Assembly: GCF_013122565.1 (NCBI RefSeq)
Contig: NZ_CP053258.1
Length of the DNA stretch: 64,000 nt
DNA from: Escherichia coli
GTDB lineage: Bacteria; Pseudomonadota; Gammaproteobacteria; Enterobacterales; Enterobacteriaceae
Strand: one strand, 5' to 3'
The notes under the pieces were generated by a model. That model saw nothing but the letters and a program-made list of their open reading frames with translations. It had not been told where the DNA came from and searched no databases. Position numbers and translations under genes: made by a program. This document shows, piece after piece, positions 3,545 through 55,538 of this stretch (positions are counted from its first letter, which is position 1; every line of letters starts with the position of its first letter).

Positions 3545-3649
3545 AGTAAATGCCCCAAAAAAAGAGGACGGTTTAAATAAACTCTGGAATGAATAATTAA
3601 CGTTATTTACCTGTTATGGGAAAAGTAAAATCAGCTCATAACATACGCT

Positions 3650-3860
3650 GACAGGTGTGGCACATTTGTGCCTGGGAAGAGGGTGAAAATCCCTCGCAGC
3701 CCCCGCTGCTGTAATGCTGACAAACCCGAAAATGCCACTGATCGCGAGATTGGGAAGGTCGGGAGAGGATGACGCTAAGCCAGAAGACCAGTCTGTCAGT
3801 CAATACCAACAACTTCGGTGGGAAGTGGGTTGCCCGGAAGCGTTCGGTAGAGTACAGGCG
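3650..3860 (+). promoter_or_regulatory. Cobalamin (B12) riboswitch, cob-operon leader type
   Basis: Conserved elements read directly: cctgggaaga, ggtgaaaatccc, gcagcccccgctgctgtaa, aatgccactg, and a B12-box-like aagccagaagaccagtc at about 3776-3795; boundaries approximate. Confidence 0.7.
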
Positions 3861-17465: not shown

Positions 17466-17541
17466 TGGCTCCTCTGACTGGACTCGAACCAGTGACATAC
17501 GGATTAACAGTCCGCCGTTCTACCGACTGAACTACAGAGGA
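17466..17541 (-). tRNA. asnV: tRNA-Asn (GUU)
   Basis: 76-nt reverse complement of the E. coli tRNA-Asn sequence; position between ldtA side and nac. Confidence 0.95.
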
Positions 17542-19873: not shown

Positions 19874-19949
19874 TGGCTCCTCTGACTGGACTCGAACCAG
19901 TGACATACGGATTAACAGTCCGCCGTTCTACCGACTGAACTACAGAGGA
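19874..19949 (-). tRNA. asnU: tRNA-Asn (GUU)
   Basis: Identical 76-nt tRNA-Asn sequence (reverse complement). Confidence 0.95.
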
Positions 19950-21697: not shown

Positions 21698-21773
21698 TCC
21701 TCTGTAGTTCAGTCGGTAGAACGGCGGACTGTTAATCCGTATGTCACTGGTTCGAGTCCAGTCAGAGGAGCCA
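21698..21773 (+). tRNA. asnW: tRNA-Asn (GUU)
   Basis: TCCTCTGTAGTTCAGTCGGTAGAACGGCGGACTGTTAATCCG...GAGCCA read directly on the plus strand. Confidence 0.95.
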
Positions 21774-36079: not shown

Positions 36080-36155
36080 TGGCTCCTCTGACTGGACTCG
36101 AACCAGTGACATACGGATTAACAGTCCGCCGTTCTACCGACTGAACTACAGAGGA
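36080..36155 (-). tRNA. asnT: tRNA-Asn (GUU)
   Basis: Identical 76-nt tRNA-Asn (reverse complement); upstream flank atcgtgtgaacggggcgcatatta is identical to that of asnV. Confidence 0.95.
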
Positions 36156-37146: not shown

Positions 37147-37236
37147 GGAGAGATGCCGGAGCGGCTGAACGGACCGGTCTCGAAAACCGGAGTAGGGGCA
37201 ACTCTACCGGGGGTTCAAATCCCCCTCTCTCCGCCA
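37147..37236 (+). tRNA. serU: tRNA-Ser (CGA)
   Basis: GGAGAGATGCCGGAGCGGCTGAACGGACCGGTCTCGAAAACCGG...TTCAAATCCCCCTCTCTCCGCCA read directly; 90 nt with a long variable arm. Confidence 0.9.
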
Positions 37237-45459: not shown

Positions 45460-46647
45460 TTAGAACTGGTAGACTAAGCCCACAGCAACGATATCATCGG
45501 TAGCGATGCCGTTTTCTTTGTAGAAGTCGTCGTCGTTGTCCAGCAGGTTGATTTTGTAATCAACATAGGTGGACATGTTTTTGTTGAAGTAGTAGGTCAT
45601 ACCAATATCAACATATTTAACCAGATCTTTGTTGGTGTAGTGATGATTACCCTGGCTGTCGAAGTTATCACTATTTACACCGCCTAAATCCTTACCTTTA
45701 GATTGCAGGTAAGCGATGGACGGGCGCAGGCCGAAGTCGAACTGATACTGAGCAACAACTTCAAAGTTTTGGGTTTTGTTAGCAATGGCATCAGCATCAC
45801 CGTAACCAGTCATGTTACGGGTTTCAGCATACATAGCTGCTAAGTAAACGTTATTAGCGTCGTATTTAGCACCAACGGTCCATGCTTCTGCTGTTTCACC
45901 GCCAGCAGTTGCATCGAAGCGATCTCCATAACGGGTGTTATGAGTATCTTTGTGAACCTGGTTATCGGTACGGTCAGAGTTAGAATAAGCAGCCCCCAGA
46001 CTTAAACCGAAGTCGAAGTCATAGGAAGTGGACATACCGAAGCCGTCACCGTTCTCTTTAGCTAACTTACGTCCATTACCGTTACCAGATCCTTCCTGAC
46101 CGAACGCTCCACTACCTTCATTATTACCCTGATATTGCAGAGCAAAGTTCAGGCCATCAACCTGACCGAAGAAGCCATTGTTACGGTAGGTTGCAACACC
46201 ATTGGTACGACCGTTCATGAAGTTGTCAGCACCAGCATAGGTATCGCCACCAAATTCTGGCAGCATATCGGTCCATGCTTCTACGTCATATACGACACCG
46301 TAGTTACGACCATAGTCGAAAGTACCATTCTGGCCAAAGCCTAAACCTGCAAATGCCAGACGCGTTGCGGTATTACCTTTGTCACTTTCAGGACCGTTTG
46401 CGCCAATGTTAAATTCCCACTGACCGTAACCAGTGAATTGGTCAGCGATCTGAGTTTCACCTTTGAAACCGATACGGGCATATGACATGTCGCCATCGCT
46501 GCCAGAATCATCAGAGAAGTAGTGCAGGCCCGCTACTTTTCCGTACAAATCCAGTTTATTACCATCTTTATTATAGACTTCAGCCGCATTTGCTGCGCCA
46601 GCAACTAATAACGCCGGGACCAGCATTGCCAGAACTTTTCTTTTCAT
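45460..46647 (-). CDS. yedS: Outer-membrane general porin (OmpC/OmpF/PhoE family), intact
   Basis: Start trimmed to [21 protein letters not shown] (395 aa); C-terminal VYQF; porin-like Gly/Tyr/Asp-rich composition. Confidence 0.8.
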
Positions 46648-46958
46648 TATGTATTCCCTTGTGATTATAATCTTCATGAATATATCAATAAGTGCCGTTA
46701 TCCAAAAAAAAGCACATTTGGATACTATTCTATGAAGTTCATTTTATTTTAAGAATTACATGTAACAAATGTATTTAAAAGATTTCAAAATGTTTCCAAT
46801 CTATTTAATATAATTCAGAATTATGAATTCTAAATATAAGCATTCATGAAAATTATAGCTGTATATCAATAATTTATGAGTTAACCGGAAAAATAGGTAT
46901 TGTCAATGATTGTTGCGCCAAACGGCAGGTGTGATCACGCGCACATTAATGAAGACAT

Positions 46959-47045
46959 AAAAAAAAGCCGGCATCATGCCGGCCCAAAAAATATAAACAA
47001 GACGATAAAAGGCTAATAACAGGGTTATCATGACATAGAAATCAA
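46959..47045 (-). ncRNA. Candidate small RNA ending at a strong intrinsic terminator (possibly RseX)
   Basis: Minus-strand terminator GCCGGCATGATGCCGGC followed by U8 at 46983 to 46959, with no CDS upstream; 5' end not determined; the RseX identification rests only on remembered map position. Confidence 0.3.
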
Positions 47046-47213
47046 AAAAGGTATAATTGTATTCAGTGCTAATATATTGTTTAGGTGAATTAATAAAACC
47101 ATTACCAAAGATATAAATAAATCTTTATTGCTGATTTTCCGGTAATTATTGCAGTTGCGCAAAATTTATCTATTTGTTCAAAAAATGATTGAGTCTTGAC
47201 TGGCTCATCCAAT

Positions 47214-47579
47214 GTGGAAAAATGTGACTTTTATCACATAATAGTACTAAGTCTGAATTTTCCGGGTTATCTCAAAATGGAATACGGTTCGACAAAGATG
47301 GAAGAGAGACTCTCTCGCAGCCCTGGCGGCAAATTGGCTTTGTGGGCTTTCTATACATGGTGTGGCTATTTCGTCTGGGCAATGGCGCGTTACATCTGGG
47401 TGATGAGCCGGATCCCCGATGCCCCGGTGTCGGGATTTGAAAGCGATTTAGGATCTACCGCGGGAAAGTGGTTAGGGGCACTGGTCGGATTTTTATTTAT
47501 GGCTCTGGTCGGGGCATTGTTAGGCAGCATTGCCTGGTACACCCGACCTCGTCCCGCACGTAGCAGACGCTATGAATAA
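47214..47579 (+). CDS. yedR: Small inner-membrane protein
   Basis: Contains ...MEYGSTKMEERLSRSPGGKLALWAFYTWCGYF...; start uncertain (GTG 47214, or ATG 47277 / 47298). Confidence 0.7.
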   Translation: MEKCDFYHIIVLSLNFPGYLKMEYGSTKMEERLSRSPGGKLALWAFYTWCGYFVWAMARYIWVMSRIPDAPVSGFESDLGSTAGKWLGALVGFLFMALVGALLGSIAWYTRPRPARSRRYE

Positions 47580-47618
47580 AAACTGCTAAGGTTGCGACTC
47601 TTTGGCAACGGAGCGCGT

Positions 47619-48314
47619 ATGGACTTACAACACTGGCAGGCAGAGTTCGAAAACTGGTTGAAAAACCATCATCAGCACCAGGACGCGGCCCATGACGTGT
47701 GTCATTTTCGCCGCGTCTGGGCTACGGCACAGAAGCTGGCGGCAGATGATGATGTCGATATGCTGGTGATTTTAACCGCCTGTTATTTTCACGATATTGT
47801 GAGCCTGGCGAAAAATCATCCGCAGCGGCAGCGTTCTTCAATCCTGGCGGCAGAAGAGACGCGTCGCCTGCTCCGTGAAGAGTTCGTGCAATTTCCGGCG
47901 GAGAAAATTGAGGCCGTTTGTCATGCCATTGCCGCTCACAGTTTCAGCGCGCAAATCGCCCCCTTAACCACGGAAGCTAAAATTGTCCAGGATGCGGATC
48001 GGCTGGAAGCCCTGGGGGCGATTGGCCTGGTGCGCGTGTTTGCCGTTTCAGGGGCATTGGGCGTGGCGCTGTTTGATGGCGAAGATCCGTTCGCACAGTA
48101 TCGCCCGCTTGATGATAAACGCTACGCGCTGGATCATTTCCAGACTAAGTTGCTGAAGCTACCGCAAACCATGCAAACCGTAAGAGGCAAGCAGCTGGCG
48201 CAGCACAACGCGCAATTTTTAGTCGAGTTTATGGCGAAGCTCAGTGCCGAACTGGCGGGGGAGAATGAAGGTGTCGATCACAAGGTGATAGATGCGTTTT
48301 CACCCGCGGGCTGA
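47619..48314 (+). CDS. yedJ: HD-domain phosphohydrolase
   Basis: Start trimmed to [13 protein letters not shown] (231 aa); HD motif CYFHDIV. Confidence 0.85.
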
Positions 48315-48380
48315 GCGCGTGGCCCTAAATGGCTGTAATTATGTTAACCTGTCGACCATCTCAGATGGCCGGTTAAATCT

Positions 48381-49799
48381 ATGCAGGAAAATATATCAGT
48401 AACCGATTCATACAGCACCGGGAATGCCGCACAGGCAATGCTGGAGAAACTGCTGCAAATTTATGATGTTAAAACGCTGGTGGCGCAGCTTAATGGTGTG
48501 GGTGAGAATCACTGGAGCGCGGCAATTTTAAAACGTGCACTGGCGAATGACTCGGCATGGCACCGTTTAAGTGAGAAAGAGTTCGCCCATCTGCAAACGT
48601 TATTACCCAAACCACCGGCACATCATCCGCATTATGCGTTTCGCTTTATCGATCTATTCGCCGGAATTGGCGGCATCCGTCGCGGTTTTGAATCGATTGG
48701 CGGACAGTGCGTGTTTACCAGCGAATGGAACAAACATGCGGTACGCACTTATAAAGCCAACCATTATTGCGACCCGGCGACGCATCATTTTAATGAAGAT
48801 ATCCGCGACATCACCCTCAGCCATAAAGAAGGCGTGAGTGATGAGGCGGCGGTGGAACATATTCGTCAACACATTCCTGAACACGATGTTTTACTGGCCG
48901 GTTTCCCTTGTCAGCCATTTTCGCTGGCTGGCGTATCGAAAAAGAACTCGCTCGGGCGGGCGCACGGTTTTGCCTGCGATACTCAGGGCACGTTGTTCTT
49001 TGATGTGGTGCGCATTATCGACGCGCGTCGTCCGGCGATGTTTGTGCTCGAAAACGTCAAAAACCTGAAAAGCCACGACCAGGGTAAAACGTTCCGCATC
49101 ATCATGCAGACGCTGGACGAACTGGGCTATGACGTGGCTGATGCAGAAGATAACGGGCCGGACGATCCGAAAATCATCGACGGCAAACATTTCCTGCCGC
49201 AGCACCGTGAACGCATCGTGCTGGTGGGTTTTCGTCGCGATCTGAATCTGAAAGCCGATTTTACTCTGCGTGATATCAACGGATGTTTCCCTGCGCAGCG
49301 AGTGACGCTGGCGCAGCTGTTGGACCCGATGGTCGAGGCGAAATATATCCTGACGCCGGTACTGTGGAAGTACCTCTATCGATATGCGAAAAAACATCAG
49401 GCGCGCGGTAACGGCTTCGGTTATGGAATGGTTTATCCGAACAATCCGCAAAGCGTCACCCGTACGCTGTCTGCGCGTTATTACAAAGATGGCGCGGAAA
49501 TTTTAATCGATCGCGGATGGGATATGGCCACGGGTGAAAAAGACTTTGACGATCCGCTGAATCAGCAACATCGTCCACGTCGGTTAACGCCTCGAGAATG
49601 CGCGCGCTTAATGGGTTTTGAAGCGCCGGGAGAAGCGAAATTCCGCATTCCGGTTTCGGACACTCAGGCCTATCGCCAGTTCGGTAACTCGGTGGTCGTG
49701 CCGGTCTTTGCCGCGGTGGCAAAACTGCTTGAGCCAAAAATCAAACAGGCGGTGGCGTTGCGTCAGCAAGAGGCACAACATGGTCGACGTTCACGATAA
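48381..49799 (+). CDS. dcm: DNA-cytosine C5 methyltransferase (CCWGG)
   Basis: 472 aa; C5-MTase motifs FAGIGG (motif I) and GFPCQPFS (motif IV). Confidence 0.95.
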
Positions 49800-55451: not shown

Positions 55452-55538
55452 AACACATCAGATTTCCTGGTGTAACGAATTTTTTAAGTGCTTCTTGCTT
55501 AAGCAAGTTTCATCCCGACCTCCTCAGGGTCGGGATTT
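55452..55538 (+). ncRNA. dsrA: DsrA small regulatory RNA
   Basis: AACACATCAGATTTCCTGGTGTAACGAATTTTTTAAGTGCTTCTTGCTTAAGCAAGTTTCATCCCGACC...CAGGGTCGGGATTT read directly, ending in an intrinsic terminator. Confidence 0.9.

Follow-up and report, generated by a model that had tools for sequence, protein, structure and literature searches.

The small RNA gene rseX at an orphan Rho-independent terminator between drpB and an intact yedS-type porin gene of Escherichia coli

A strong Rho-independent terminator with no coding sequence in front of it raises the question of which transcript it brings to an end. Such a terminator is seen on the minus strand of the 64,000-nucleotide stretch of Escherichia coli DNA analyzed here, which we term the window (NCBI RefSeq assembly GCF_013122565.1, contig NZ_CP053258.1). 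An earlier note on this DNA had proposed a candidate small RNA at 46950-47060, between yedR and yedS, and had pointed to the porin-regulating RNA RseX, which maps to the same place in K-12. The genes surrounding the terminator are:

45460..46647, minus strand: yedS-type porin gene, 395 aa (NF007841, OmpC subfamily, 544.9 bits)
47277..47579, plus strand: drpB (yedR), 100 aa (NF038392, 151.6 bits), divergent from rseX
47619-48314, plus strand: phosphohydrolase of the PRK10119 family (NCBIfam), yedJ in K-12

The identification of the two immediate neighbors as yedR and yedS is borne out by the NF038392 and OmpC-subfamily matches and by their position in K-12. The absence of an upstream coding sequence on the minus strand was likewise claimed correctly: between the terminator and drpB there are just mechanical open reading frames (ORFs) of 36-44 aa. 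The start codon of the window drpB corresponds to the 'ATG-22' of PMC7648144.

Direct reading of the plus strand gives eight A residues (46959-46966) followed by GCCGGCATCATGCCGGC (46967-46983), which on the minus strand amounts to GCCGGCAUGAUGCCGGC, i.e. GCCGGC-ATGAT-GCCGGC (46983-46967), followed by U8. A terminator scan recovered a hairpin at 46985..46965 with 9 pairs (6 of them G-C), a loop of 3 and a T-rich tail, and this was by far the best of 5 terminator-like sites in the region 45500-48500, where 3.4 would be expected by chance. The same hairpin is present in both the MFE and centroid folds of the 92-nt transcript, whose fold as a whole has z = -2.56, with 3 of 200 shuffled sequences folding equally well. 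The sequence agrees exactly with the minus-strand terminator and its eight U that had been described for this site, and which can be delimited as follows:

46959..46985, minus strand: Rho-independent terminator, core stem GCCGGC/GCCGGC at 46983-46967, G-U extension to 46985-46965

The U8 tail (46966-46959) is preceded by the U-rich stretch AUAUUUUUU, in a manner typical of the Hfq-binding 3' module, which usually comprises a U-rich stretch followed by the terminator and its U-tail.

The whole window was scanned against Rfam 15 at gathering thresholds, and alignment with the RseX model, which had been suggested as a check on the candidate, turned out positive. RF01401 (rseX, Hfq-binding RNA; gathering score 50) matches 47049-46960 on the minus strand over model positions 1-94 of 94, with 94.1 bits and E = 1.6e-11. 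K-12 MG1655 has an annotated ncRNA rseX (b4603, 2033649-2033739) in the interval from drpB (yedR) to the yedS pseudogene, in line with the earlier note. About 8 kb around rseX are collinear with K-12 in inverted orientation (8033 aligned columns, 95.8% identity), and the window gene occupies the orthologous slot in the drpB-yedS interval, co-oriented with yedS and divergent from drpB. The window and K-12 genes are identical at 81 of 91 nt with zero indels, and at all 62 of the 62 positions from nt 30 to nt 91. The full-length RF01401 match, along with the presence of K-12 rseX in the same interval, supports the guess that the candidate is RseX. We place at roughly 95% the probability that the locus is rseX, understood as a self-contained non-coding gene, 91 nt long, on the minus strand, with a putative sigma70-type promoter of its own and a Rho-independent terminator:

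46959..47049, minus strand: rseX small RNA gene, 91 nt, 5' end at 47049 and U-tail 3' end at 46959 (RF01401 match and collinearity with K-12)

The gene is already known, as the sRNA was described in 2002-2006 and is curated both in Rfam and in the K-12 annotation; the aspects that are mildly new are confined to a rare 5' allele and the pattern of conservation across the genus. Downstream of rseX, yedS is present in the window as an intact ORF of 395 codons, orthologous in position to K-12 yedS, whereas the K-12 copy is a pseudogene with 6 in-frame stops. Strain 162.2 has the identical rseX allele together with a frameshifted yedS.

Within the species, a match to the 92-nt sequence exists in 4879 of the 5426 complete E. 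coli genomes. The exact allele of the window is rare, being found at a level of at least 99% identity in 20 of these 5426 genomes; the neighboring 4-kb coding stretch yedJ-dcm-vsr-yedA-yedI shares 95-99% identity with nearly all E. coli, the best value being 98.8%, so that the window belongs to E. coli in the broad sense. When the GTDB r220 collection, in which each species is represented by one genome, was scanned for exact matches to the conserved core pattern, 6 loci were recovered. Five of these are from Escherichia, namely two E. coli representatives, Escherichia sp. E1V33, E. whittamii and Escherichia sp. MOD1-EC7003, and each scores 89.6-95.2 bits with RF01401. The sixth, from an uncultured MAG, has no Rfam rseX hit and was set aside as a chance match. 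Within the exact-match limits of this pattern scan, RseX appears to be confined to the genus Escherichia.

An alignment of 14 sequences, representing four or five Escherichia species, revealed a marked partitioning of the RNA. Neither the segment nt 30-58 nor the core terminator stem-loop varies, and the differences are concentrated at nt 6-9, 14, 21 and 24-29. The invariance of the terminator core encompasses 7 pairs and the loop in 14 of 14 sequences, with slight variation in the extension and the U-tail. Covariation was sought on the Rfam structure by counting pairs across the 14 sequences, and no compensatory change was found: 8 of the 9 pairs in the terminator are constant throughout, and 5 non-pairing cells, in a few alleles, occur in the two helices of stem-loop 1. 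As judged from these sequences, the comparative data would neither support nor refute the 5' hairpin fold. The invariance of nt 30-58 and of the core terminator, set against the variation of the flanks and of nt 6-29, points to purifying selection on the 3' two-thirds of the RNA.

In terms of its anatomy, RseX has a U-rich leader at its 5' end, then a weak stem-loop (nt 14-38), and a single-stranded middle stretch (nt ~37-64, GCCUUUUAUCGUCUUGUUUAUAUUUUUU). Two elements are of particular relevance for its alleles and targets:

47012..47036, minus strand: 5' stem-loop 1 of the Rfam model (nt 14-38), with loop nt 24-29 AACCCU (GCUUCC in K-12)
47000..47020, minus strand: predicted target-pairing core, RseX nt 30-50, GUUAUUAGCCUUUUAUCGUCU (from duplex prediction and invariance in Escherichia)

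The RNAs of the window and of K-12 share the drpB/yedR-rseX-yedS slot, the length of 91 nt, the strand relationship, the predicted +1, the terminator and nt 30-91, but differ by 10 substitutions, all of which lie in nt 6-29. The window has UGAU instead of AUUA at nt 6-9, A14 instead of G, the loop AACCCU instead of GCUUCC, and U29 instead of C; A14 and U29 of the window allele occur in no other sequence of the 14-sequence alignment.

A consensus scan of the minus strand at 47040-47110, where the earlier note had advised looking for a promoter, uncovered a match of the form TAAACA-16-TACAAT:

47056..47083, minus strand: candidate sigma70 promoter of rseX, -35 TAAACA at 47083-47078, spacer of 16 nt, -10 TACAAT at 47061-47056

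The candidate agrees with the consensus at 9 of 12 positions and places its -10 hexamer at -12 to -7 relative to 47049, and the predicted +1 at 47049 is the equivalent of the annotated 5' end of K-12 rseX. The interval originally proposed for the small RNA, 46950-47060, covers the RNA itself; the promoter falls outside it. K-12 rseX has a sigma70 consensus promoter, a primary 5' end supported by 5'-RACE and a Rho-independent terminator (PMC8313858), and the candidate promoter may, judging from its sequence, function in the window strain as well.

The opposite strand bears a sigma70 site of its own that is nearly consensus (11 of 12), composed of ATGACA (47030-47035), a 16-nt spacer and TATAAT (47052-47057). 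This site points toward drpB and shares positions with both the -10 region of rseX and nt 15-20 of RseX; its two hexamers are invariant in the 14-sequence alignment. We considered it as the drpB promoter and rejected this assignment, since PMC7648144 documents the promoter and TSS of drpB much closer to that gene, in the interval from the old GTG-1 to ATG-22, corresponding to 47214-47277 here. A scan site of the form TGGAAA-16-CATAAT at 47215-47242 agrees with the documented location.

The intergenic region has a G+C content of 21-35% versus 48-58% in the flanking genes, which is consistent with the published silencing and binding by H-NS. In wild-type K-12, RseX is undetectable, and deletion of hns gives rise to forms of ~91 nt and ~75 nt (PMC8313858); the gene may hence be silent in the window strain too. 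These properties bring up the alternative that the locus is a decayed or silent relic, i.e. an rseX homologue that no longer gives a functional RNA and is kept by the slow turnover of H-NS-coated intergenic DNA. Other observations that would fit such a relic, besides the undetectable native RNA, are that rseX is among the sRNAs that are variable or lost within E. coli and Shigella (PMC3318445), that about 10% of the complete E. coli genomes have no match, and that the promoter match is a modest one. However, decay of this kind is at odds with the invariance of nt 30-58 and the core terminator in 14 Escherichia sequences, alongside variable flanks and a variable nt 6-29, and with the intact state of the candidate promoter, the predicted +1 position and the terminator in the window. 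We accordingly regard the relic as very improbable.

Even less credible, to the point of being negligible, is a small hydrophobic peptide, made either alone or from a dual-function RNA and starting at the AUG of RseX nt 19-21 (47031) to give MITLLLAFYRLVYIF...: although there is a 42-aa ATG ORF at 47031..46903 on the minus strand, and its first 15 codons are largely inside the nearly invariant part of the RNA, no Shine-Dalgarno sequence precedes it (UUUCUAUGUC), it reads through the terminator so that the 91-nt transcript would have no stop codon, its ATG is ATC in 3 of 14 alleles, changes in the length of T-runs frameshift or truncate it in 6 of 14, and the invariance is at the level of nucleotides with no codon pattern, such that comparison of the ORF across the 14 alleles led us to reject it.

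Taking the locus as the sRNA gene rseX, we examined its potential targets. According to Douchin et al. 2006, as that work is related in PMC8313858 and PMC7648144, RseX was isolated through its ability, in multicopy, to suppress the essentiality of the protease RseP, and the K-12 RNA binds Hfq and depends on it for the post-transcriptional repression of ompA and ompC. K-12 RseX also binds and represses fimB and ihfB, for which an accessible toehold termed 'region 1' has been described, and its ompA site, 'region 5', is predicted and not mapped (PMC8313858). Unconstrained RNAduplex on long leaders yielded unrealistically long duplexes; instead, we used a windowed duplex search corrected for the opening cost of both RNAs, the resulting predictions being without shuffle control. 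The leaders of ompA and ompC were taken from K-12, as these genes of the window strain lie outside the window. The predicted pairings are:

ompA leader (K-12): RseX nt 37-50 with -21..-7, GAGG included; -14.0 kcal/mol for the window allele, -13.3 kcal/mol for the K-12 allele
ompC leader (K-12): RseX nt 28-44 with -15..+2, -9.3 kcal/mol for the window allele; -10.2 kcal/mol for the K-12 allele (nt 30-44 with -15..+1)
yedS leader (window): no convincing site; -4.9 kcal/mol for the window allele, -6.1 kcal/mol for the K-12 allele

The best pairings predicted at the ompA and ompC Shine-Dalgarno regions fall within the block that is invariant in the genus, and the sites predicted for the two alleles are essentially the same. 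On ompC, a marginally better alternative is predicted for the window allele, in which nt 25-42 pair with -28..-9 (-9.5 kcal/mol in total). The predicted ompA-pairing stretch is situated roughly where the published 'region 5' would be. Regulation of the adjacent yedS by RseX was also considered and is unsupported, given best leader duplexes of -4.9 and -6.1 versus -14 kcal/mol for ompA.

On these grounds, and with expression and activity in the window strain being matters that we infer, the following scheme may be proposed. The rseX gene would be transcribed from its own sigma70-type promoter, and the transcript ended by the Rho-independent terminator. RseX would probably act in trans as an Hfq-dependent base-pairing sRNA, the dependence on Hfq being taken from the literature on the K-12 orthologue, with its single-stranded nt ~30-50 predicted to pair with the ompA and ompC mRNAs over their Shine-Dalgarno regions. 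Such pairing would block translation and thereby lower porin synthesis; in K-12, fimB and ihfB are repressed as well. Owing to its location in AT-rich, H-NS-silenced DNA, the gene would normally be almost silent.

The 10 substitutions of the window allele are in or near the 'region 1' toehold for fimB and ihfB, if 'region 1' is taken as the 5' end of RseX, and this part of the regulon may differ as a consequence. A more elaborate proposal has two separate elements: 1) the 5' allele may alter targets that depend on the 5' end (e.g. fimB and ihfB), with the ompA/ompC core being kept; 2) the plus-strand sigma70 site perhaps competes with PrseX and adds to the silence of the RNA. We view this proposal as rather unlikely.

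Several other porin-repressing sRNAs offer a point of comparison. MicA, MicC, MicF, RybB and OmrA/B resemble RseX in being short trans-encoded RNAs with a Rho-independent terminator and an Hfq module, which pair with omp mRNAs at the ribosome-binding site or close to it. The ompA target is common to MicA and RseX, and the ompC target to MicC and RseX, as discussed in PMC8313858. In contrast, none of these RNAs has sequence homology with RseX. They are driven by sigmaE or EnvZ/OmpR, whereas RseX is silenced by H-NS and is without a known envelope-stress promoter (PMC8313858).

The significance of the locus is small beyond its correct annotation. In all 30 RefSeq/PGAP records listed, K-12-derived strains included, the rseX match is unannotated; it is annotated in the curated K-12 MG1655. 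For this reason the 'orphan terminator' will keep being rediscovered. The other point of use is that the core predicted to pair with ompA and ompC, together with the core terminator stem-loop, has stayed unchanged throughout the genus, the drift being in the 5' third, and this frozen core is the region to mutate for mapping the RseX-ompA site.

The scan of the window against Rfam also brought to light several other RNA elements. A full-length gene for the sRNA DsrA is present at 55452-55538 on the plus strand (RF00014, 100.2 bits), at a distance from rseX that we presume to be about that of K-12. Near the other end of the window are a cobalamin riboswitch at 3636-3810 on the plus strand (RF00174, 107.7 bits) and STnc230 at 2486-2569 on the minus strand (RF02075, 74.8 bits). 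The stretch containing the riboswitch and STnc230 is annotated elsewhere in E. coli as pocR, a cobalamin-biosynthesis remnant and cobUST, and coverage of at least 80% of this 4-kb pocR-cobUST stretch is reached in just 641 of the 5426 complete E. coli genomes. The stretch looks like a remnant of a Salmonella-type pdu/cob locus. Finally, the window has five tRNA genes, four for tRNA-Asn(GTT), whose Rfam scores are identical, and one for tRNA-Ser(CGA), at 17466-17541 (minus), 19874-19949 (minus), 21698-21773 (plus), 36080-36155 (minus) and 37147-37236 (plus). We take this set to be the asnV/asnU/asnW/asnT and serU cluster of the K-12 map; asn tRNA genes are known insertion sites of islands.
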